In this document: piece by piece, positions 8,956 through 53,886 of the stretch
Layout: each line of letters starts with the position of its first letter
Position numbering within the stretch: position 1 is the first letter of the stretch
Source of the DNA: Squalus acanthias
Lineage: Eukaryota
Length of the DNA: 64,000 nt
Assembly (NCBI GenBank): GCA_030390025.1
Contig: CM059432.1
Coordinates: forward strand, 20,648,001-20,712,000
Direction: 5' to 3'
Program-made: the position numbers and the translations under genes
The notes under the pieces: model-generated
What the model was told of the DNA's origin: nothing
What the model saw: the letters and a program-made list of their open reading frames with translations, nothing else
Databases searched by the model: none

Positions 8956-9307
8956 ATTCAATTCTGACCGTTGCGACGTCCGCCTGAAGCGCTGCAGAGA
9001 TTTGATATGTATAATTTATTTATAAAGTAATTCCCGTGCATTCCGAATAAACTCGGACCTCACACAGCGTTGGAAGGGGACAACAATTACTACTTCGGGA
9101 CTCACAGGGTTATTCTTGATATATATATATATCTATAAAAAATCAATTCCGGGAATGTACCACAAGGGGGAGACCTAGGACAAAACTACAAAGATTGCAA
9201 TGAAATCATCTCCAGGTCTCTTTCTCTAAAAAAGTCGATCCTGTTATGTCCATGGTCTGGGCTCTTGCTGCTATTTCCTTGGCGTTTCTTGGGACAACTG
9301 ACCTAGG
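8956..9307 (+). other. ADGRB1: Putative 5'UTR part of the first coding exon, with uORFs
   Basis: Polypyrimidine tract plus acceptor cctttttatcatttcAG ending at 8955. uORFs at 9007-9030, 9155-9178, 9200-9229 and 9246-9311. Confidence 0.55.
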
Positions 9308-10040
9308 ATGAGGATCACTGAAACCGCGGTGATTGTGATATTTGCCGCCGCGCTGTGGACCGTTAGCGGGTTGGAGGTCGGGCAACCCCCTTGCACCACT
9401 CTGGTCCAGGGGAAACTATTCGGATACTTCTCTTCCTCAGTGGTCTTCGCTTCCAACAACTCGGTCTGCTCGTGGATTATCCAAAACCCCGACCCCAGGA
9501 GATACACGCTGTACATGAAAGTGGCCAAGACCAGCAATATCTGCGAGCGCCACCAAATCCGCACCTACCAGTTCGATTCCTTCTTGGCAAGCACCCGCAC
9601 CTATTTGGGGATGGAGAGCTTCGACGAAGTGCTGAAGCTCTGCGACTCCTCCGCCCGTTATGCCTTCCTGCAGTCCAGCAAGCAGTACCTTCAGATGAAG
9701 CGGATCTGGCCCGGGGACGGTGTCCGGCCAAGGGGCAGAGGCGGCCGGGTCAAAGACAAGGAGTTCTCTGCGGAATACCTGGTTGTGGGCAACAGGAACC
9801 CCAGCAAAGGGGCTTGCCAGATGCTCTGCAAGTGGCTGGAGACCTGCTTGGCCATCAGCACCAGCGCCCGTCCCTGTGGCATCATGCAGACCCCCTGCTT
9901 CTGCTCGAGGGGCGAGAGCATGGGGCAGTCCACCGAAATGTTGGGGTTAAATAAAAAGGGAGACAGCTGTTTGAAAGACGGCGTCTACTTGGAGAATTGT
10001 ATCAAGAGCCCAAAGGAAAGCAGCGACGCGGATTCCGCCG
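9308..10040 (+). CDS. ADGRB1: Adhesion G protein-coupled receptor B1 (BAI1), first coding exon: signal peptide and N-terminal CUB-like domain
   Basis: Translation contains BAI1-typical blocks [62 protein letters not shown] and PCGIMQTPC. It ends at donor CCG|GTAAGT (10041); 733 nt gives phase 1. Start context has A at -3. Confidence 0.95.
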
Positions 10041-11324
10041 GTAAGTGAACAGAACGGCTGTAGACTTCTCGAAGCCTTTGCTGCCTTCGTTATGAACAAA
10101 AGCACCCACAGAGTCCCTGAGATTTCATGTTTTAGCTTGAAAGAGCGCGCCCACTGTTCTTTTTAAAAAATTACCTGCTGCGGTGTTTTTGTACATTTTT
10201 TTTAAAAAAAAGGAACCTTATTACCCACTCGACTTGAATTGTTTCTATAAACGAGGCGTTTCTGGCCGGCCCTGATTGTGACCCACAATTCGTCTGGAGG
10301 TTAAAAAATTGACATGTAATTGACCGGCGATCAGCTCGGGAAACCGACAGGGGCGCGAATGTTGGGTTTAATTCAGAATTGCCAGTGGGTTTCTCGCCGG
10401 TTTATGACCCAGCAAGCAGGAAGCATTTTGACGAATATCACTCATTCCTTAAGCGATTTCGAATAATTAAACTAAACCTTTCATTGTTTCCACGCTTTCC
10501 CACTAAATCCCTACTAACATTTTTTTTTGCAATCCGATTGCAATCCGAGTTCACTCGAGTTCTGTATATCCAATGACTAGTTTTAAGTGCAACTTTCCGA
10601 GCGTTATAATATACTTGTTGATTCTTTTGCAGCCCTGTCTCTCACGATAAAACCGACATCATCTGTTTTTTTTGGAGTGGGGGGGGGGGGGGGGGAGGTG
10701 TTGCAATAATTTGAGAGCAATTGTGCATTTTTTTTTCAATGAAATGATTATTTCGGTTTGTTTTCTGCTTGCCTGTCCTAGCCTCGCTTCTCAAGCAGCT
10801 TAAGCGCAGAAGGGTTACTGGATTCTGAAAATAATGGACCGCCTTGCTTGTAGAGCTATGAAATTCCTGTGCACCTTTTGAAATGCGAAACCGGGTTTCG
10901 AAATGACGCTTGTTCACAGCCAGTTCCTACCCAGGGGTGGCGTACAGACACAATGCAGTACACAGCATTCAGTAGAAGCAAAGATCAGTGTCCGGTGTCT
11001 TTCCCCTAATAAAGTTCATTTCCTCTCAGTTTAAACATACATGTTCTTTCAAACGCTGCAACTTCCTCACTATTGGCCATTTTAAATCGCTCATCTCTTG
11101 ATGAGGATGCCCGTTTCTTCCCTGCGAGTGTTGGCCCTGGCATTCCCTGGGATCTACGCCATTGTCCTGTACCAATACTGTTATAGCAGGAGAAACGTGT
11201 CAAACTGTGCACGGTAAATGTGTGCAAAAACAGAAAGCACAGCGCTGCAGATTCTGCAACTCTCAGACAGAAAACGCGCGAAACACCCAGCAGATCAGGC
11301 ATCATCTGTGGAGAGAACAGGCAA

Positions 11325-23114: not shown

Positions 23115-26113
23115 TCATGTCCAAATTCCTGCCCGCTCCACATAACCCTTAATTCCCTTTACTTCTAGGAAACTGTCTATTTCTGTTTTAAATTTATGTA
23201 ATGATGTAGCTTCTACAGCTTTTTGGGGCAGCATATTCCATGGGCCTACCACCCTCTGAGTGAAGTAGTTCCTTCTCATCTCAGCTTTGAAAGAGAAGCC
23301 CCTTATTCTAAGACTATGCCCCCTAGTTCTAGTTTCACCCATCATCGGGAACATCCTCCCCGCATCCACCCGATCCAACCCCTTCACAATCTTATATGTT
23401 TCAATAAGATCGCCTCTCATTCTTCTGAACTCCAATGAGTAGAGTCCCAATCTATCCAACTTCTCCTCATATGTCCATCCCCTCATCCCCGGGATTAACC
23501 GAGTGAACCTTCTTTGTACTGACTCGAGAGCAAGTATGTCTTTTCTTAAGTATGGACACCAAAACTGTATGCAGTATTCCAGGTGTGGTCTCACCAATAC
23601 CTTGTACAACTGAAGCAATACCTCCCTATTTTTATATTCTATCCCCCTAGCAATGAAAGCCAACATTCCATTGGCCTTCTTAATCACTTGCTGCACCTGC
23701 ATACTAACCTTTTGAGTTTCGTGCACCAGGACCCCCAAATCCCTTTGTACTTCAGTACCTTCCAGTTTCTTGCCATTAAGATAATAACTTGCTCTCTGAT
23801 TTTTCCTGCCAAAGTGCATAACCTCACACTTTCCAGTATTGTATTCCATCTGCCAAATCTCGGCCCACTCACTTAGCCTGTCTATGTCCCCTTGCAGATT
23901 TTTTATGTCCTCCTCACTCACTACTTTCCCTCCCATCTTAGTATCATCTGCAAACTTTGATATGTTACACTCGGTCCCCTCCTCCAAATCGTTAATATAG
24001 ATTGTAAAGAGTTGGGGACCCAGCACCGACCCCTGCGGAACACCACTAGTTACTGATTGCCAGTCTGAGAATGAACCATTTATCCCAACTCTCTGCCTTC
24101 TGTTAGATAGCCAATCCTCTATCCATGCCAGAATATTACCCCCAATCCCGTGATTTTTTATCTTAAGCAATAATCTTTTGTGTGGCACCTTGTCAAATGC
24201 CTTTTGGAAGTCTAAATACACCACATCCACTGGTTCCCCTTTATCTACCCTGTATGTTACTTCCTCAAAGAACTCCAGCAAATTTGTCAAACATGACTTC
24301 CCCTTCATAAAACCATGCTGACTTTGTCCTATTAAATTATGATTATCCAAATGTCCCGTTACTGTCTCCTTAATAATGGACTCCAAAATTTTACCTACCA
24401 CAGATGTTAGGCTAACCGGTCTATAGTTTCCAACCTGCTGTCTACTGCCCTTTTTAAATAAGGGTGTTACATTAGCAGTTTTCCAGTCTGCCGGGATCTT
24501 TGCTGAGTCCAGGGAGTTTTGGAAAATTATTACCAATGCATCCACAATCCCTACCGCCACTTCCCTCAAGACCCTAGGATGTAAGCCATCAGGTCCAGGT
24601 GATTTATCCGCCTTGAGTCCCATTATTTTACCGAGTACCACTTCCTTAGTGATTTTGATCGTGTTTAACTCCTCCCCCCCTATAGCCCCCTGTTTGTCCA
24701 GTGTTGGGATATTCTTAGTGTCCTCTACTGTAAAGACTGATACAAAATATCCATTCAGTGTATTTGCCATCTCCATATTTCCCACCATTAATTTCCCGGT
24801 CTCATCCTCTAAGGGACCAACATTTACTTTAGCCACATTTTTTCTTTTTATATAGCTATAAAAACTCTACTATCTGTTTTTATATTTTTTGCTAATTTAC
24901 TTTCATAATCTATCTTCCCTTTCTTAATCAATCTTTTTGTTATTTTTTGCTGTCTTTTAAAGTTTTCCCAATCCTCTATCCTCCCACTAGATTTGGCTAC
25001 CTTATAGGCCCTTGTTTTTAGTCGAATACTATCCTTAATTTCTTTACTTAGCCACGGATGACTGTCTTTTCTTTTACACCCTTTTCTTCTCAGTGGAATA
25101 TATATTTTTTGGAAGTTGTAAAATAACTCCTTAAATGTACACCACTGATCATGTATCGTCTTACCCTTTAATCTATTTTCCCAATCCACTCTACTCAATT
25201 CCGCTCGCATACCTTCATAGTCTCCTTTATTCAAGCTTAGCATGCTTGTTTGAGATCCAATCTTCTCACCCTCTAAGTGAATATGGAATTCAACCATGTT
25301 ATGGTCACTCATTTCAAGGGGATCCTTTACTAGGACATTTTTAATTAATCCTGTCTCATTACACAGGACCAGATCTAAGGTTGCTTGCCCCCTGGTCAGT
25401 TCAGTTACATACTGCTCAAGAAACCCATCCCTAATACACTCAATGAACTCATCCTCAAGGCAGCCCTGCTCAATTTGATTTGTCCAATTAATATGATAGT
25501 TAAAATCCCCCATAATTATAGATGTTCCCTTATTACAAGCCTCAACTATTTCCTGATTGATACTCCGTCCAACAGAGTTGCTACTGTTCGGACGCCTATA
25601 GACTACGCCCACTAATGTTTTTTTCCCCTTATTATTCCTTATCTCCACCCAAACTGTTTCATTATCCTGATCTTTTGATCCAATATCATTTCTCTGTATT
25701 ACAGTGATTCCTTCCTTTATTAACATAGCTACCCCACCTCCCCTTCCTTCCTGCCTGTCCTTCCTGATCGTTAAATAACCTGGTATGTTTAATTCCCAGG
25801 CATTGTCATCCTGCAGCCATGTTTCTGTAATGGCCACAAGATCATACCCATATGTAGTTATTTGTGCCATTAACTCATCTATTTTGTTACGAATGCTACG
25901 TGCATTCAGATAGAGAACTTTTAAATATGTTTTGTGACACTTAGTTCCCGCTTTTGCCCTTTTTATTACTTTACCTTTTACTCCATACCTTCTGCCCCTT
26001 CCTGACACACTCTGGTTTTTAATTTCCCCACTGCTACCTAAGTCTATGACCTTCTCTTTTGTCAATTTTATTATTTGCTCTCCAGGAACCTCCCCCCCAC
26101 TAGTTATTTTAAA
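23115..26113 (-). pseudogene. CR1 ORF2 (AP endonuclease + reverse transcriptase), split by one frameshift near 24860-24870
   Basis: APE motifs YLNARS, ITETW, MGDFN, LDLV, SDHN; RT motifs NYRPVSL, DFQKAFDKV, GVPQGSVLGP, FADD. The two ORFs 24848-26065 and 23115-24836 are adjacent in different frames. Confidence 0.92.
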
Positions 26114-27030
26114 GCCCTCTCTACAGCCCTAGTTATATGATCCGCCAGGACTCTAGTCCCAGCACTGGCCAAGTGAAGCCCGTCCCAACGGAACAGCTCC
26201 CTCCTGTCCCAGTCCTGGTGCCAGTGTCCCAGGAAGCAAAACCCATTTCTCCCACACCAGTCTTTGAGCCACTCATTTAACTCTCTAATTTTATTTGTCC
26301 TAGCCAAATTCGCTCGTGGCTCAGGTAATAATCCAGAGATTATTACCCTTGAGGTTCTGTTTTTTAATTTGACCCCTAGCTGCTCATACTCCTTTAACAG
26401 AACCGGCTTCCTTGTCCTATCTACGTCATTTGTACCAACATGGACCACGACAACTGGATCCACCCCCTCCCACTGCAAATTTCTTTCCAGCCCAGAGGAG
26501 ATGTCCTTAACCCTGGCACTGGGCAGGCAACACAGCCTACGGGACTCTCGCTCTCGGCTGCAGAGAACTCTATCTATCCCCCTAATAATACTATCCCCTA
26601 CCACTACAACATTTCTATTTACTCCCCCCTCTTGAATGGCCCCCCGTTCCACGGTGCTGTGGCCAGGTTGCTCATCCTCCCTGCAGTCCCTGCTCCCATC
26701 CCCACAGGGAGTAAGAACCTCGAACCTGTTGGACAAGAGCAACGGCTGCGGCTCCTCCAACACTACCTCCTGGATCCCCGTACCTGCCTCACTCGTAGTC
26801 ACACCGTCCTGTCCCTGACCATGGGCTACATCTGAATTAATTAACTTCATAGGTGTGACCACCTCCTGAAACACAAAGTCCAGGTACTTCTCCCCCACCC
26901 TGATGTGTCGCAGTGTCTGAAGCTCAGACTCCAGCTCATCAATATGGAGCTGGAGTTCCTGTAGCAGCAGACACTTGTCACAGATGTAATCACCGTGAGC
27001 CTCAATGGGGTCCACCGGCTCCCACATCAA
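26104..27030 (-). CDS. CR1 ORF1p: partial zinc finger/coiled coil and SGNH esterase domain
   Basis: Motifs CDKC, LSNRFEVL, VVVGDS, HVGTND and WDGLHL. The N-terminal CxxC is missing, consistent with 5' truncation. Confidence 0.88.
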   Translation of the reverse strand: MMWEPVDPIEAHGDYICDKCLLLQELQLHIDELESELQTLRHIRVGEKYLDFVFQEVVTPMKLINSDVAHGQGQDGVTTSEAGTGIQEVVLEEPQPLLLSNRFEVLTPCGDGSRDCREDEQPGHSTVERGAIQEGGVNRNVVVVGDSIIRGIDRVLCSRERESRRLCCLPSARVKDISSGLERNLQWEGVDPVVVVHVGTNDVDRTRKPVLLKEYEQLGVKLKNRTSRVIISGLLPEPRANLARTNKIRELNEWLKDWCGRNGFCFLGHWHQDWDRRELFRWDGLHLASAGTRVLADHITRAVERALK

Positions 27031-27467
27031 CCCAGTTCCAGAATGATGGATGTCCACATCAGGATGACTCTGTTCTAGAATAGAAATTATTCACATCAGG
27101 ACAATAGCCTTCATTCTGGAGTAAGTGTTGCATGTTCCTCTTATGCATGTTCTCCAGGTTAGAGCGCTGTAGATTCCAAATAATAGATAATGCAGGTAAC
27201 TGTAAACTAATGAGTGAGTTTTGATTTGATTCAATTTAAATTAATGCTCATTTAATAACATTTGGTATACCCATTTTTCTTAGCTTATGAAGAGACTGAG
27301 AGAGAATCTATTCCAACTTATGAGTGTGCTGAACCTTGGTTGCTCAGCTACTACATTAAATATTCATTCTGAGTTTAGCACTTGGTGAATGTTCTGATAA
27401 GATCTGATCCTTAGTCTGGGTTGAGTCATCTGATCTCGGGCACAAAACCAGTCTATGTTTGAGATCA

Positions 27468-29094: not shown

Positions 29095-29940
29095 GGGGGC
29101 GATTTTGCCAGCCCTGGGGAGGCGGGTATGGAGGCGGGACTGCCGGGAAAATGGCAGAATTTGGGGGCGGGTGCCCAACCCGCCCCCAACCCGCCTACGT
29201 GCCATCTTGCCAGGAGGCAGGTGGCCGACCCGCGCCGGGTCCCATCTCCTTGGAGGCGGGAAGGGGATTAGTGCCACTTATCTGCCTGTTAACAGGTAGT
29301 TAACAGGCAGATAAGAGGATTATCCCCATTTTCAGACCTGAAGTGCGGGCTTCCCGAAGGTTGCGAACCCCGCCAGGGTCACCGAGGCGAGCAGTGGGTC
29401 TGTGGAGGTCGGAGGGGTGCAAAAGTGCACTGTGAAGGTAAGTGATGGGTGCAAGTGTGGAGAGGTGAGTATGTGAGGTAAGTGGAAAGTGTTAGTAAAA
29501 GTGTACTTACCTTTGTTTCTTCCTGCAGGCTAAAAGAGTTGGGGATGCGGAGAGTCTCGCACCTCCGCGGCAGAGTTGACAGATGGCTGTTGCATTCTCC
29601 AATGCAAGAACCATCTAATTTCTGCAAAAGAAAGAGGTTTGATGAATCTTGAATTCAAGAACTCATCAAACTACAGAGAATGTCAGTGTTTGACAGCTTC
29701 ACAGAGCTGTCAAACGATGACAAATCATCTGTCAAAAATTTTTGACAGATGAAACGTCATACGTTGACGTTCTCTGCAACCGGCTTTCCCTTAATTGGCC
29801 TGCTAAACCCGCTGGACGGGCTTAACAAGGTCAAACAAGGGAAAATAGCGTGGGTTGGCCAGAAGTTGATGGAGGCGGGACTGAAACCCGACAAGTGGGA
29901 GTCCCGCCTCCAAAAGCTCCCCATTGGCAAAATCCAGCCC
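29095..29940 (+). mobile_element. Non-autonomous PIF/Harbinger-like element, subfamily A
   Basis: 16-bp TIRs GGGGGCGATTTTGCCA / TGGCAAAATCCAGCCC, flanks TTA/TAA. Inverted sibling at 53042-53886. Confidence 0.8.
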
Positions 29941-33530: not shown

Positions 33531-33955
33531 TGTATGTCTTTTCCCTTAATTAGCACTGCAGGTTTCAAAACGTTAAAAACATTTTTTAATAGCTTTCCGT
33601 GTCTATGTTTGAACAAATTGCCTGCAGGTCAGTATTAACCTATATTTAAGTTTGCTTTGTTGTATTTTATTTTTCGGTGCAGTTAACAAAATGTCACCGC
33701 TGTGCAGCAATCTAAGAACAGAGAACGTACACAGCAGATGGTCTTCAGTAAATACTTTTTAGCAAACAATTTTTAAATATTCAGTCAGTTGTTAAGAGGA
33801 AGGGAATTTCATCTGCGGGCTGGTAATGTAAGTGACGGCATTGTTTCCCACTTGTCCAAATGGTGGTGATTCTATGTCCCTGGGCTGCCAGGCACTCAAA
33901 TTCTGCCTGCTGCAGTTAGGGTGGGCTTTCCAACAGGATATTAGATGGGGTCATA

Positions 33956-34804
33956 GGCTGGATTTTGAAGTTGGAGTCGTGTTGGGGTCGGGAATCACAC
34001 ATTCTGGCTTGTGAACCCGCCTCCATCGAGATGTGGCCAACCCACTGTATTTGCCCTTGATTGACCTTGTTGAGCCCGCCCAGTGGGCTCAGCAGGCCAA
34101 TTAAGGGCCACCCGGCAACAGGTGACGTCACAGACTGACATTTCATCTGTCAAGAGCTTTTGACAGATGAAATATCAGCGTTTGACAGCTCTGTGAAGCT
34201 GTCAAACACTCACAATATGATTTCTAACTTCAGTCCTTCCTTTCAGGCTGAGTTAGAAATCATTACAGCACAGAAAACAGAAGGCTGCTGTTTTTGACAG
34301 GTCCACGGCTTTCCTGCTTTCTGTGCCGGTGAGATTTCTAACTCCCGAGAACTGAAGGGCTGACACCTGCAGGAGGAAGTTAAGGTAAGTAAAACTTTTT
34401 CCAACACTTAGCACTTACCTTACACACTTACCTCTGCACACATGCACCCATCACTCACCTGGCCACCGGACATATCGACCCCTCCAACCCCTGCAGACCC
34501 ACGGCCTGACCCGATAACTTGGAGTGTTTGCCACCTGTCGGGAAGCCCACACTTTTGTTTTTAAAATAGGGATTATGCAAAAAACTGTCTGTTAACTACC
34601 TGTTAACAGGCAGTTAATTGTCACTAATTCCTTCCCGCCTCGGGGAGTCGGGTCTCAGAGCACGTCGGGTACCCGCCGCCAGAGAAACTGGCATGGAGGC
34701 GGGTTGGAGTCGGGATGGGGTCGGGACCCCCTAATCTGCAACTTTAACCCCCCCCCTCCCCCTGACTCCAAACCCGACTCCATGGGTCATTCAAAATCCA
34801 GCCC
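33956..34804 (-). mobile_element. Non-autonomous Harbinger-like element, subfamily B (left palindrome arm)
   Basis: TIRs GGCTGGATTTTGAA / TTCAAAATCCAGCCC, flanked by ATA/ATA. Confidence 0.85.
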
Positions 34805-34815
34805 ATAGAGTCATA

Positions 34816-35663
34816 GGGCTGGATTTTGAATGACCCGTGGAGTCGGGTTTGGAGTCGGGATGGGGGGGGGTTAAAGTTGCAGATTCGGGGGTCCCAACCT
34901 CATCCCGACTCCAACCCGCCTCCATGCCAGTTTCTCTGGCGGCGGGTACCCGACCTGGTCTGAGACCCGACTCCCCGAGGCGGGAAGGGATTAGTGACAA
35001 TTAACTGCCTGTTAACAGGTAGTTAACAGACAGTCTTTTGCATAATCCCTATTTTAAAAACAAAGGTGTGGGCTTCCCGACAGGTGGCAAACACTCCAAG
35101 TTATCGGGTCGAGCCGTGAGTCTGCAGGGGTTGGAGGGGTCGATATGTCCGGTGGGCAGGTGAGTGATGGGTGCATGTGTGCAGAGGTAAGTGTGTAAGC
35201 TAAGTGCTAAGTGTTGGAAAAAGTTTTACTTACCTTAACTTCCTCCTGCAGGTGTCAGCCCTTCAGTTTTCAGGAGTTAGAAATCTCACCGGCACAGAAA
35301 GCAGGAAAGCCGTGGACCTGTCAAAAACAGCAGCCTTCTGTTTTCTGTGCTGTAATGATTTCTAACTCAGCCTGAAAGGAAGAACTGAAGTTAGAAATCA
35401 TATTGTGAGTGTTTGACAGCTTCACAGAGCTGTCAAACGCTGATATTTCATCTGTCAAAAGCTCTTGACAGATGAAATGTCAGTCTGTGACATCACCTGT
35501 TGCCGGGTGGCCCTTAATTGGCCTGCTGAGCCCACTGGGCGGGCTCAACAAGGTCAATCAAGGGAAAATACAATGGGTTGGCCACATCTCGATGGAGGCG
35601 GGTTCACAAGCCAGAATGTGTGATTCCTGACCCCAACCCGACCCCAGTTTCAAAATCCAGCCC
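34816..35663 (+). mobile_element. Non-autonomous Harbinger-like element, subfamily B (right palindrome arm)
   Basis: 15-bp TIRs GGGCTGGATTTTGAA / TTCAAAATCCAGCCC, TSD ATA. Confidence 0.85.
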
Positions 35664-36180
35664 ATAGAGTCATAATGGCACAGAAGGAGGCCATTTGGCC
35701 AATCGAGTCCGTGCCGGCTCTCTGTAGAGCAATCCAGTCAGTCCCATTCCTCCGCTCTATCCCCGTAGCCCTGCAAGTTTATTTCCCTTAAGTGCCTATC
35801 CAGTCTCCCCTTGAAAACATTGAGTGTCTCCGCTTCCACCACATCCGTCGGCAGCGAATTTCAGGTCATCACCACTCGCTGCGTAAAAAAGTTTTTCCTC
35901 ACGTCCCCCCTGTATCTCTTGCCCAAAACCTTAAATCTGTGTCCCCTAGTCCTTGTACCATCAACTAGTGGGGTCAGCCTTTCGCCGACTAGCCTATCCA
36001 AACCCGTCATAGTCTTGTACACCTCTATCAAAACACCCCTCAACCTCCTTTGCTTGAATGAAAACAAATTCAGCTTCTCCAACCTGTCCTTGTCGCTGAG
36101 ATCCCCCATCCCCGGAACCATTCTGGTAAATCTCCTCTGCACTCTCTCAAGGGCCTTCACATCCTTCCTAAAGTGTGGTG
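35664..36180 (-). mobile_element. CR1 3' fragment whose (atagagtc)n tail hosts the two elements above
   Basis: ORF 35861-36160 (ALERVQRRFTRMVPG...FFTQRVV). Confidence 0.9.
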
Positions 36181-43424: not shown

Positions 43425-44694
43425 GGGCCTGAATTTGCGGTCGGAGGCTTCCCGCGGGGAAATGCCTCCGATCCGCAAATAAAATCCACGCCTACCTTCT
43501 GCCTCGGGACCCACGGAGACTCGCGCTCCTGGGCCGGCCCAACCAATGAAAGAAGCGGGATCCCCATTCATGCTTATGGGGATTCCGTACGTACGGAATC
43601 CTCATAAGCATGAATGGGGATCACATAAAAAGCACAATTACATACCAAATAAATAAATAAAAAATTACATGTTTAAAATTAATTAAAATACAATTTAATT
43701 AAACATTTAAAACAAAAATTTAAATTTTTGAAAAATAAATGTAAATGTTTTAAAGCGGCTAAAAATAACCGTAACTTATTTTACAGGTGCTTTAATATTT
43801 AAATAATTGAAAAAAATTTATTTTTATATTCACTTAAACTCTTAGGGGTAAAAATTCAGTTGGTTGCGCCTCCCGTTAGCACCTTAAGAGGGCGCTAATG
43901 GGGCGCAAAGCCGCTAACGCCCGGGCGCAGCGATGTTTGCGCCGTTTGAGAACTTAACTAGACATTGTGCGGCGGCGCTAAACTTTACCGCTGCGACCAC
44001 CTGCGCGCGCAGATTGTGACGTCATTCCATGGTACAACGCCCTTGTGGCGCCCCGGAGCGGAAATTGAGTGGCGCCCCCTGCCTTACCGCCTGGCGCATC
44101 CAACGACCGGAAGACTGGAACGCTATCAATCGCTGTGGGGCTGGGGGGGGCGCTATTTAAAGGGGGCCTCTTCCTGTCTTTTTCTGTGGTTGACATTTTT
44201 GCACCACTCGTTCTGAGAGAGAGAGAGAGATTCGGAGAGAGAGAAAGAGAGACTTCTGCATTGACTCAACGCTTTGTGAGGTAGTTTTGCCTACTGATCC
44301 TAACAGTTGGCCCGCCCCGCTTTAAGAAGTGGCCGGCGCCAGTGTGTCTGTGTTCCCTCGCTAACTGGCAGCAGCTGCGCTGCGCTCGCGCTCTGAGTTA
44401 GCGCCTCACTGCTCGGCCTTTGCGCCTTAAGACAGGTGTGCAGCGCCTGATTTAGCGCTCCACTCACCTCCCGGGGCGGTAAAAGTGAAGTTTCCAGTCA
44501 GTGGCGATAATTAGCGCCAGGCGCTAATATTTGCGTCCAGACGATATTTGCGCCCCAAATGGGGCGCGACCTAATTTTTCCCCCTTAGGCTGGTAAAAGC
44601 AGGCCTTACGCGCGCAAAATCCCGGAACTTGCGGGCCCCTTATGGGCGCGTACGCACCACGTACCCACCCATAGGCACCGGAAAATACAGGCCA
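43425..44694. mobile_element. Non-autonomous DNA transposon (Harbinger-like) with internal 64-bp palindrome and AT-rich core
   Basis: Imperfect TIRs GGCCTGAATTT / AAATACAGGCC and CpG-rich ends. TSD not resolved. Confidence 0.6.
43845..44584. mobile_element. Nested Harbinger-like MITE
   Basis: TIRs GGGGTAAAAATT / AATTTTTCCCCC, perfect TSD TTA (43842-43844 and 44585-44587), many GCGC motifs. Confidence 0.8.
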
Positions 44695-45569: not shown

Positions 45570-48500
45570 CGAATAACTTGGAGTGGGAGGGGGAGGATCC
45601 AGTTGTCGTGGTCCACGTAGGAACCAATGACATAGGTAGAACTAGGAATGAGGTTCTGCTGAGGGAGTTTGAGGAGCTAGGATCCAAATTAAAAAGCAGA
45701 ACCTCAAAGGTAATCATCTCTGGATTGTTACCTGAGCCACGTGCAAATTGGCATAGGGACAAACAGATTAGAGGTTTAAATGCGTGGCTGAAAGAGTGGT
45801 GTGGGAGGAAGGGGTTTCAGTTCATGGGGCACTGGCACCAGTACTGGGGAAAGAGGGAGCTGTTCCGTTGGGACGGGCTCCACTTAAACCGGGCTGGGAC
45901 CAGTATTCTGGCAAACCGAATAACTAGGGCAGTAGACAGGGCTTTAAACTAATGAGGGGGGTGGGGTGGGAGGATTCAGGAAAGAATAAATTTAAAAGCA
46001 GCGAGAGAAATGTCAAGGCTCTAGAGCACAGTAGAGTTTTGGGTAAAAATAAGCAGAGTGGGTCAGGAAGGGACAGAGAGAATAAGAAAGGTAATAAGGC
46101 ATCAATGACTAAGGTGATATCAGGGAAAAATAGAAATAAGTCAAAGCTAAAGGCACTATATCTGAATGCGCGAAGCATTCGCAACAAAATAGCTGAATTA
46201 ATAGCGCAGATAGAAATTAACAGGTTTGATCTAATAGCCATAACGGTTACATGATTGCAATGTGGCCAAGGTTAGGAACTAAATATTCCAGGATACTTAA
46301 CTTTTAGAAGAGATAGGCAAAATGGAAAAGGAGGAGGGGTAGCCCTGATAATAAAGGATGGGATAAAGACAGTAGAGAGAAAGGATCTTAGCTACGAAAA
46401 TCAAGAAGTAGAATCAGTTTGGGTGGAGCTAAGAAACAGCAAGGGGCAGAAAACATTGGTGGGAGTTGTTTAAAGGCCCCCAAACAGTAGTTGTAATGTA
46501 GGACAGAGTATAAATCAGGAAATTAAAGGCGCATGTAACAAGGGTAATACAGTGATCATGGGGGACTCTAATCTACATATAGACTGGGCAAACCAAATTT
46601 GCAGTAATAGTGTGGAGGACGAATTCATGGAATGTATGCAAGATAGTTTTCAAGATCAGTATGTTGAGGAACCAACGAGGGAACAGGCTATTTTAGATCT
46701 AGTATTGTGCAATGAGAAAGGGTTAATTAATAACCTTGTAGAAAAGGGGCCTTTAGGGAAGAGTGACCATAATATGATAGAATTTTATATTCAGTTTGAA
46801 AGCGATTTAGTTAAATCTGAAACTAGGGTCTTAAATCTAAACAAAGCAAACTACGTAGGTATGAGGGGTGAGTTGGCAACAGTAGATTGGGAAACTCGAT
46901 TAAAAGGTATGACAGTAGACAAGTAATGGCTAGCATTTAAAGAATTAATACATAATTTACAACAAATATACATTCCTTTAAGGCACAAAAAACCCACAGG
47001 AAAAGTGGTCCAACCGTGGCTAACAAGAGAAGTTAAAGATAGTATTAGATCAAAGGAAGAGGCTTATAATTTTGCCAACAAGAGTAGTAAACCTGAGGAT
47101 TGGGAGGATTTTAGAATTCAGCAAAGGAGGACCAAGAAATGGATAAAGAAAGGGAAAATAGAATATGAGAGTAAACTAGCAAGAGACATAAAAACAGACT
47201 GTAAAAGATTCTATAGGTATGTAAAAATTAAAAGATTAGCAAAAGTAAATGTGGGTCCCATACAAGCTGAGACAGGAGAAATTGTAATGGGGAATAAGGA
47301 AATGGCAGAAAAATTTAAAAAATACTGCAGGCTGGATTTTACCAGCCCTGAGGAGGTGGATTTGGAGGCGGAACTGCTGGGAAAGTCAAAAAGAATGGGA
47401 GCGGGTCCCGAACCCACTCCAAACCCACCTCCAACCAATCTTCCCGGGAGTCGGGTCCCCGATTTGCGCAGGGAACCGACTCCTAGCAGCGGGAAGAGAA
47501 TTATAGCCACTTAACTGCCTGTTAACAGATAGTTAACAGGCAGTTAAGAGGCTTTTTCCAATTTTTAGACTTCTGCTGCGGGCTTCCCAATGTCGGGGAA
47601 CCCCGCCAGGGTAAGTGAAGCGTGCTGTGGGTCTGTTGTACTGTTGGTGTACAGATGACAGCTGCAGAAGTGGTGTGAAGGATGCAATGGGACACTCGTG
47701 AATATCAGAGGTAAGGAAATGTTGTGAAAGTTATTTTTAATGTGTTTAGATTTTTCTGTAGGTGACAAGCTTTGAAGTGTTTGTGTGGCCTCACCTCAAT
47801 GGGAGAAGTGACAGATCACTTCTGTACCCTCACCTGCAGCTGCCATCTGTTTCATCCTAAGGAGAGAGTCATTGGAGAGCCTGGGTGCAAGGGCTGACCT
47901 TTGTACAGTGATTGTCAGTATTTGACAGCACCTCAATGCTGTCAAACACTGTCAAATCATCTGTCAAAAATTTATGGTTCATGTGCTTTTAAGAAAGCTG
48001 GCGGATGAAGCGTCATCAACTGATGTCATCTGACACCGGCTTTCCCTTAATTGGCCAGCAAGCCCGCAGGGCGGGCTTAACAAGGCCAATCAGGGGAAAA
48101 TAGTGTCTGTGCGTCGGACGTCGCTGGGGGCGGGACTAGAACACGGAAGGCAGCAGTCCCGCCCCCAACTCGTCTCGGTGAGTAAAATCCAGCCCAAAGA
48201 GTCTGTTTTCATGAAAGAAGACGCAAAAAGCTTCCCGGAAATAATGGAGAACCAAGGCTCTAGCGAGAATGAGGAACTGAAAGATATTAGTATTAGTAAA
48301 AAAATAGTACTGGAGAAATGAATGGGACTGAAAGCCAATAAATCCCCATGACCAGATGGCCTACATCCTAAGGTTTTGAAAGAGGTGGCTATAGAGATAA
48401 TGGATGCATTGGTTGTCTTCTTTCAAAATTCCATAGATTCTGGAATGGTTCCCGCGGATTGAAAGGTAGCAAATGTAACCCCACTATTTAAGAAAGGGGC

Positions 48501-53041: not shown

Positions 53042-53886
53042 GGGCTGGATTTTGCCAATGGGGAGCTTTTGGAGGTGGGACTCCCACTTGTCGGGTTTTA
53101 GTCCCGCCTCCATCGACTTCTGGCCAACCCACGCTATTTTCCCTTGATTGACCTTGTTAAGCCCGTCCAGCGGGCTTAGCAGGCCAATTAAGGGGAAGCC
53201 GGTTACAGAGAACGTCAGCGTATGACGTTTCATCTGTCAAATATTTTTGACAGATGAATTGTCATCGTTTGACAGCTCTGTGAAGCTGTCAAACACTGAC
53301 ATTCTCTGTAGTTTGATGAGTTTTTGTATTCAAGACTCATCAAACCTCTTTCTTCAGCAGAAATTAGATGGTTGTTGCATTGGAGAATGCAGCAGCCATC
53401 TGTCATCTCTGCCGCGGAGATGCGAGACTCTCCGCATCCCCAACGATTGAAGCCTGCAGGAAGAAACAAAGGTAAGTAAACTTTATCTAACTCTTTCCAC
53501 TCACCTCACATACTCACCTCTCCACACTTGCACCCATCACTTACCTTCACAGCACACTTTTGCACCCCGCAGACCCCCGCAGACCCACTGCTCGCCTCAG
53601 TGACCCTGGCAGGGTTCGCAGCCTTCGGGAAGCCCGCACTTGTGTGGATAAAATGGGGATAATCCTCTTATCTGCCTGTTAACTACCTGTTAACAGGCAG
53701 TTAAGTGGCTGTAATCCCCTTCCCACCTCCAGGAGACGGGACCCGGCGCGGGTTGGGTACCCGTCTCCTGGGAAGATGGCACGGAGGCAGGTTGGGGGCG
53801 GGATGGGCACCCGCCCCCAGATTCTGCCATTTTCCCGGCAGTCCCGCCTCCATACCCGCCTCCCCAGGGCTGGCAAGATCGCGCCC
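53042..53886 (-). mobile_element. Non-autonomous Harbinger-like element, subfamily A
   Basis: TIRs GGGCTGGATTTTGCCA / TGGCAAGATCGCGCCC, TSD TAT. Reverse complement of 29095-29940. Confidence 0.85.

Follow-up and report, generated by a model that had tools for sequence, protein, structure and literature searches.

Introduction

A 3-bp target duplication and an extended target preference are the defining traits of PIF/Harbinger transposons (PMC2836001, PMC9179366), whose terminal inverted repeats (TIRs) are usually given as 25-50 bp long (PMC9179366). As described in the accounts consulted, Tourist-like MITEs, mPing and the zebrafish Harbinger3N_DR are non-coding, with short TIRs, a 3-bp duplication, an extended palindromic target, repeated subterminal motifs and high copy number (PMC2836001, PMC9179366, PMC9710019, PMC3016246). 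For Harbinger3_DR, a Myb-like protein is reported to bind a 9-bp subterminal motif (PMC9710019), and the extended palindromic target is given as AAACACCWGGTCTTT (PMC3016246). Two further vertebrate cases come close: Harbinger-N12A_XT of Xenopus tropicalis, a Harbinger MITE with TIRs and palindromic internal repeats (PMC12676858), and the short variants of Harbinger-Snek in sea kraits, which are explosively amplified non-coding derivatives that keep terminal motifs and duplications and often lie in introns (PMC8437027). Among cartilaginous fishes, Harbinger went undetected in the elephant shark, and other species were said to need checking (PMC9179366). Separately, template switching is described as creating and mending hairpins, a process known from RNA genes under selection (PMC8794818).

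Here, we describe a family of elements from a 64,000-nucleotide stretch of Squalus acanthias DNA (hereafter the window) which shares the traits listed above for Tourist-like MITEs, mPing and Harbinger3N_DR. Unlike those PIF/Harbinger elements, it is ~850 bp long with 60-70% of its bases in predicted pairs, carries motif clusters mirrored ~192 bp from its ends as well as an intron-like cassette, and is flanked by ATA or TAT duplications rather than strict TWA. Harbinger-N12A_XT differs in being 342 bp long and in that some of its copies are proposed enhancers (PMC12676858), while for the Harbinger-Snek variants, compared by description only, hairpins do not figure in the account consulted (PMC8437027). 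Template switching can give paired changes and new perfect stems, each in a single mutational event and on either strand alike (PMC8794818); the carrier here is, however, a DNA transposon, for which arm-to-arm copying would be the corresponding event. A search of the literature returned no account of this family, nor any of covariation among Harbinger MITEs of vertebrates; the family may already be catalogued in Repbase or Dfam.

Results

Five copies in a repeat-rich, probable intron

BLAST and alignment recovered five collinear full-length copies in the window (Table 1), as the earlier note had counted them, in the same three subfamilies and with the start of B1 placed at 33955. In pairwise alignments of these five, identity is 93% between A1 and A2, 97% between B1 and B2, and 61-71% between subfamilies. 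All full-length analyses thus concern five copies, i.e., three independent lineages (A, B and C), from a single 64-kb window. The two B copies (33950-35700) also form a surviving 850-bp inverted repeat, 97% identical with an 11-bp spacer, in successive ATAGAGTC units of the LINE tail.

Table 1. Coordinates of the element copies and of the features annotated in copy A1, in window positions.
Feature	Position	Strand	Description
Copy A1	29095..29940	+	846 bp; non-autonomous element; flanks TTA / TAA
Copy A2	53042..53886	−	845 bp; 3-bp duplication ATA/ATA in element orientation
Copy B1	33955..34804	−	850 bp; inverted, in the same repeat tail as B2, 11 bp away; TAT/TAT duplication conditional on loss of the final TIR base
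Copy B2	34816..35663	+	848 bp; duplication ATA/ATA; sits in the ATAGAGTC repeat tail of a LINE presumed to be CR1-type
Copy C	47329..48195	+	867 bp; within an ORF2 presumed to be CR1-type; without intact duplication; 24-nt insertion splits the 28-bp palindrome
Left TIR of A1	29095..29110	+	family form GGGCTGGATTTT plus an extension differing by subfamily
Left M1 array	29118..29260		eight GG[AG]G[GT]CGGG-like copies in both orientations
H1	29277..29315		palindrome around TTAA, its right half repeated in tandem (11 bp), giving three TTAACAG sites; T at 29281 near-private to A1
Putative intron-like cassette	29438..29528	+	GT donors at 29438, 29465 and 29478; branch-like TACTTAC at 29504-29510; pyrimidine tract; AG acceptor at 29527-29528
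Diverged middle	29540..29680		48-57% identity between subfamilies; hairpins differ: 29637-29671 in A1, 35355-35401 in B2, 47804-47823 in C
H2	29688..29715		two inverted TTGACAG (M2) sites, 6-nt loop; invariant save the loop-closing pair in C
28-bp palindrome	29725..29752		two further M2 sites; right CTGTCAA 193 nt from the right end, mirroring the CTGTTAA of H1 191-196 nt from the left end
Extended H4 stem	29785..29844		core 29804-29824; sole clean subfamily-level compensation (A-T to G-C in B)
H5	29870..29912		pair of M1 sites in inverted orientation close to the right end; stem disrupted in B
Right TIR of A1	29925..29940	−	inverted repeat of the left end

The surroundings are repeat-rich vertebrate DNA with many LINE fragments carrying RVT_1 and GDSL-type frames, which we take to be CR1-type. 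One LINE (23115-27090, minus strand) is near full-length, with a GDSL-esterase ORF1 and a 583-aa open reverse transcriptase stretch, and the fold z-score of the tile at 26351-27200 is −6.6. The N-terminal domain of an adhesion GPCR B (PF19188, E = 1.6e-67; BAI/ADGRB) is encoded by an exon at 9302-10048, and the elements probably lie in an intron 3′ of it.

Abundance of the family

To gauge abundance we used public contigs of four runs (X5, X8, X15 and X17, the latter two guessed to be RNA) mapped onto the stretch; the mapping carries no strand, end or level information. In X5, contig depth is 21 in the flank versus 0.29-2.2 million summed across the element, with sharp edges: it leaps from 21 to more than 1e5 at 29095, where loose ends (125/404) pile up. 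The depth ratio, of order 1e4-1e5, cannot be read directly as a number of copies, but as a rough figure it indicates tens of thousands. Parts of the stretch are present in public runs from six organisms, and in several related species the family reaches a very high copy number. Exact-pattern scans of public metagenome, viral and prokaryote genome contigs gave no matches, neither to the element nor to an autonomous partner.

Ends, duplications and coding capacity

A G-rich TIR start is a trait of Harbinger families. The TIRs here are near-perfect over 12-16 bp and start with GGG (family form GGGCTG in the X8 loose-end contigs), with an imperfect extension to ~45 bp in B and C; these extensions, although 820 bp apart, change in pairs between subfamilies. 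Exact ATA/ATA duplications flank two of the five copies (A2 and B2) and near-matches another two (B1, with TAT/TAT after a one-base TIR loss, and A1, with TTA/TAA, two of three bases), C having none; they depart from the strict TWA of plant elements. Around the insertion, C stands at −1 and a purine at +1 in all five copies, A at −4 and T at +4 in four. The loose-end consensuses, built from 125 and 404 contigs with low overall agreement (0.36-0.37), finish AGAGAC-TAT and CAGAAAC-TTT, in agreement with this flank motif and resembling the extended palindromic target described for Harbinger3_DR (PMC3016246).

The PIF/Harbinger assignment made in the earlier note is upheld by TIRs that are short and begin with GGG, by duplications of three A/T-rich bases and by a target motif extending beyond them. 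Judged from these sequence traits, the family is likely a non-autonomous member of this type, Tourist-like in its working. Zator elements have a 3-bp TWA duplication and GG ends. Membership in Zator was rejected on the duplications, which are ATA in A2 and B2 and TAT in B1 rather than strict TWA. Coding capacity is slight: the longest stop-free frames span 72-91 aa, B has none, and the four of five frames scanned gave no Pfam matches; a coding relic was rejected.

Hairpin density and predicted folding

All stems quoted in the earlier note are present at its coordinates. Perfect stems of at least 7 bp number 9-13 per copy, versus a shuffle mean of ~2 (maximum 5-6 among 40 shuffles). Against shuffles, the fold z-score of A2 is −17.2 for one strand and −21.2 for the other, and local folding of all ten copy-strand combinations gives z from −6.4 to −20.0, compared to a median of 0.2 and a minimum of −6.6 for 64 other 850-bp tiles of the window. 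The antisense z-scores are the stronger ones while absolute energies favor the sense strand; this is not strand evidence, since the G-rich sense strand makes its own shuffles fold better and the mismatch test described below is even.

Conservation is unequally spread. Invariant columns make up 80-83% of the 30-column bins holding the H1, H2 and H4 cores versus 27-43% in the middle, where hairpins stand at similar places in the subfamilies with different sequence: the 16-pair stem of B keeps three pairs in A and six in C, and the 9-pair stem of A keeps one and two. At 29700-29746, several contig joints pass over 32-44 nt between recurring CTGTCAAA/TTTGACAG sites and so represent variants in which part of the M2 cluster is deleted.

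Two other Harbinger-like non-coding elements lie in the window. One (43425-44693) has GGGCCTG...CAGGCC ends, a 64-bp palindrome that is 97% perfect (43559-43622), and fold z-scores of −9.5/−11.1. The other, of a third family, is nested within it (43845-44584) and has GGGG...CCCC ends, a TTA/TTA duplication and a repeated GGCGCWAA-like motif. The nested element is not hairpin-rich (z −1.5/−1.3), which means that this transposition mode does not by itself produce dense hairpins; with the surrounding element rich, hairpin richness is family-specific.

The named compensations

The earlier note had proposed that all subfamilies keep the same inverted repeats with paired differences between them. 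Its copies, coordinates and hairpins hold, whereas the uniform set of repeats does not: H1, H5 and the 28-bp palindrome are incomplete or broken in some copies, and its four showcase compensations are weaker than claimed, with only H4 clean. At H1, the T-A pair occurs in A1 alone, A2 having A.A and both B and C A-T, and B pairs at only 13-14 of 17 positions. The base at 29281 is A, not T, in 99% (X5), 97% (X8), 95% (X15) and 94% (X17) of contig depth. B-like contigs contribute 68% of X5 depth at 29277, so that T among non-B contigs is still just ~3% in X5, with a larger remainder in X8. The T is thus nearly private to A1, the sort of single-copy change which had been named beforehand as counting against the covariation reading. 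The H2 change exists but concerns the loop-closing pair of the single C copy, beside a loop that differs at three of six positions. At H5, the pair is A-T in A and G-C in C, but both B copies have A.C at the supposedly compensated position and pair at 7-8 of 13. The 28-bp palindrome is perfect in A1 only. By contrast, the A-T to G-C change of H4 is genuine and common to both B copies. One further “compensation” (columns 653/654) involves adjacent bases at a palindrome center, unable to pair in a hairpin.

Motif arrays and end symmetry

The conserved stems are composed of two recurring motifs, M1 and M2, which occur as direct repeats too. M1 (GG[AG]G[GT]CGGG) is found in its strict form 4-7 times per copy, versus 0.03 per 850 bp elsewhere, and in both orientations; the left end has about eight sites, the right end two or three. 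M2 (TTRACAG) occurs 7-8 times per copy versus 0.5 elsewhere. H5 amounts to two M1 sites, and H2 plus the 28-bp palindrome to four M2 sites.

In subfamily B, a G-to-T change in M1 affects the two outermost sites at each end plus two or three inner sites (~80-89, 151), while the local hairpin partners of the changed sites (100, 123, 161 and 779, four in all) keep G. The M1 change in B thereby follows end-to-end symmetry better than local hairpins. The M2 clusters are likewise mirrored: every copy has a CTGTYAA at a distance of 191-196 nt from its left end, and four of the five have one 193 nt from the right end. Motif arrays, end-mirrored spacing and strand symmetry together favor the branch of the earlier interpretation that proposed dyad-symmetric protein sites, which on these sequence patterns may be the better one.

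Is pairing itself conserved?

The claim that pairing rather than primary sequence is conserved is not supported by a count over the five named hairpins: among their 61 pairs, 39 never vary on either side, six are doubly changed and 13 depart solely by mismatches. These stems are thus strongly conserved in their primary sequence. Six doubly changed pairs are reached in 11 of 500 shuffles, for a structure picked post hoc and only three independent lineages.

An unbiased test took in every perfect stem of 6 bp or more that is present in one subfamily or another, with eight gapped pairs set aside. The end regions hold 69 invariant pairs, 56 single breaks, eight compensations and five broken doubles, so that 8 of 13 double changes are Watson-Crick (p = 0.039, uncorrected, against a baseline of 0.34 derived from the transition fraction). 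The middle holds 15 invariant pairs, 77 single breaks, 12 compensations and 29 broken doubles, and its 12 Watson-Crick cases in 41 double changes (p = 0.79) are what chance would give. Strand-biased G-U tolerance, proposed as a check for RNA, did not appear: single breaks include 25 G.T versus 24 A.C, favoring neither strand, and a directional count gives 35 versus 33. Differences between same-subfamily copies fall within stems in 16 of 61 and 5 of 28 cases, compared with stem fractions of 0.31 and 0.23, and inserted copies therefore show no clear stem protection. RNAalifold on the five copies returned a covariation term of +15, i.e., a penalty. The whole window had no Rfam match at gathering thresholds, and a sigma-70/terminator scan, with models irrelevant for this host, stayed at chance level.

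A lineage test nevertheless gave a different kind of signal. Real letters were compared with permuted ones, in a Watson-Crick-only fold, at the positions that set a single lineage apart from both others (50, 119 and 160 sites). The lineage-specific letters fold more stably (z = −3.0, −5.4 and −3.2; 0 of 60 permutations each), although these z values would be inflated if several of the changes arose together as a block, as they may have. In 18 neutral simulations that started from a structured ancestor (three root positions), z ranged between +2.2 and −2.8; no simulation equaled the three lineages together, or B at −6.0. The simulated sets contained fewer B and C sites than were observed, making this an approximate control. 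By region, the signal is found in the middle (z = −4.3, −4.0 and −2.1) and in the left subterminal array of B (−3.1) and C (−4.0; +1.6 in A), and is weak around H2-H5 (−0.8, −2.2 and −0.7). Lineage-specific double changes are few (2, 5 and 2); one change pairing with an invariant base is commoner (2, 17 and 19). Overall, there is a real tendency for lineage-specific changes to maintain Watson-Crick self-complementarity beyond what chance would give, and most of it lies in the diverged middle. The one-arm-rewritten signature of template switching was examined on 11 helices, and the idea that A and B rewrote opposite arms found no support there. A loop inversion at H2, looked for by eye, was absent.

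An intron-like cassette

The putative cassette (Table 1) lies at the element center and is complete in all three subfamilies, with branch and pyrimidine sequences in C that differ yet fit the consensus. Each of the five copies has the acceptor at element position 433-438, and together they contain 18 of the 32 AGGTRAG matches in the window. No splice-junction joint was seen among the 15 of 240 contig joints listed.

Discussion

Taken together, we find it somewhat probable that the conserved hairpins are pairs of oppositely oriented protein sites acting on double-stranded DNA, and that the subfamily-specific hairpins come from arm-to-arm copying, in a non-autonomous element of Harbinger type. 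Strand symmetry, recurring motifs that include direct repeats, end-paired TIR changes, the CTGTYAA spacing and the adjacent-base “compensation” all count for this reading. Against it count the position of the M2 clusters and the cassette far inside the element, where transposition sites are unexpected, the mild Watson-Crick excess among end-region double changes, also expected from selection on pairing, and the duplications of C (none) and A1 (two of three bases). The steps might run as follows. A full-length partner would supply a Myb/SANT-like helper and a DDE transposase that excise and insert the element, and M1, possibly also M2, would be sites for this helper or for host factors needed in mobilization. 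Sequence would be selected only in copies that go on to transpose. Once short inverted motifs are present, template switching could mend or rewrite their arms during DNA synthesis, and this would produce occasional paired changes as well as new hairpins in the unconstrained middle. Inserted copies would then decay irrespective of stems.

If mutation alone were at work, the interior would be functionless and nothing but the TIRs and the subterminal sites closest to them would matter; a palindrome-rich ancestor would keep regenerating hairpins through template switching, whether in replication or in the repair of excision gaps. A strand-symmetric signal, a pair-preserving tendency strongest in the least conserved middle, where hairpins differ by subfamily, and a near-private H1 change that perfects a stem all agree with this, and the mechanism itself is documented (PMC8794818; see also PMC5453318 and PMC8604942). 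We nonetheless regard it as unlikely: it leaves unexplained the primary-sequence conservation of the H1, H2 and H4 cores, the end-symmetric M2 spacing and a near-constant length (845-867 bp), and the H2 loop inversion was not seen. Similarly unlikely, in our estimate, is that the ends are simply inherited control regions, that is, promoters and a spliced leader of a full-length Harbinger, with motifs that are host transcription-factor sites and owe their conservation to the parents, not to the short element. By name, the candidate motifs would presumably be GC-box-, CCAAT-, CRE-, TALE- or E-box-like, and a complete cassette retained in all three subfamilies, with C fitting the consensus through different sequences, is what such an origin would leave. 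However, the subfamilies are collinear end to end and of equal length, suggesting one deletion derivative that diverged later; the listed contig joints include no splice junction, and the GGAGTCGGG of B deviates from a GC box.

The earlier note had itself leaned toward conserved pairing and left room for a structured cargo, an element selected to fold as RNA or single-stranded DNA (e.g., in gap repair) and whose pairing aids its spread. Its Harbinger typing and its protein-site branch are supported, while pairing over sequence and the cargo are not. Extreme folding in all ten copy-strand folds (z −6 to −20), lineage-specific changes that favor pairing in all three lineages, middle hairpins at similar places despite different sequence, the Watson-Crick share of end-region double changes and the splice-like signals would fit a cargo. 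Yet G.U pairs show no strand bias, single breaks outnumber compensations by 56:8 at the ends and 77:12 in the middle, middle double changes are at chance, stems are broken in whole subfamilies, changes between copies do not clearly avoid stems, Rfam is silent, and TIRs with 3-bp duplications indicate a double-stranded cut-and-paste route; we therefore rate a cargo as improbable. An equally improbable reading is that the interior is selected for foldability itself, the transposing lineage turning over its hairpin sequences while holding self-complementarity and length because folded molecules do better when single-stranded, be it in repair of the excision gap or as a spliced RNA recruiting the helper.

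Under the preferred reading of protein-site pairs plus arm copying, the element is of an ordinary kind with an unusually legible anatomy, i.e., candidate helper-binding motifs, end-mirrored spacing and hairpin turnover. The family bears on the remark about Harbinger in cartilaginous fishes cited above (PMC9179366). Should the single-strand reading be true instead, it would add an unrecognized single-strand step and change how Harbinger amplification is understood. With its many copies and many subfamilies, the family offers a natural data set on why MITE interiors are often hairpin-rich, whether through selection or through template switching.
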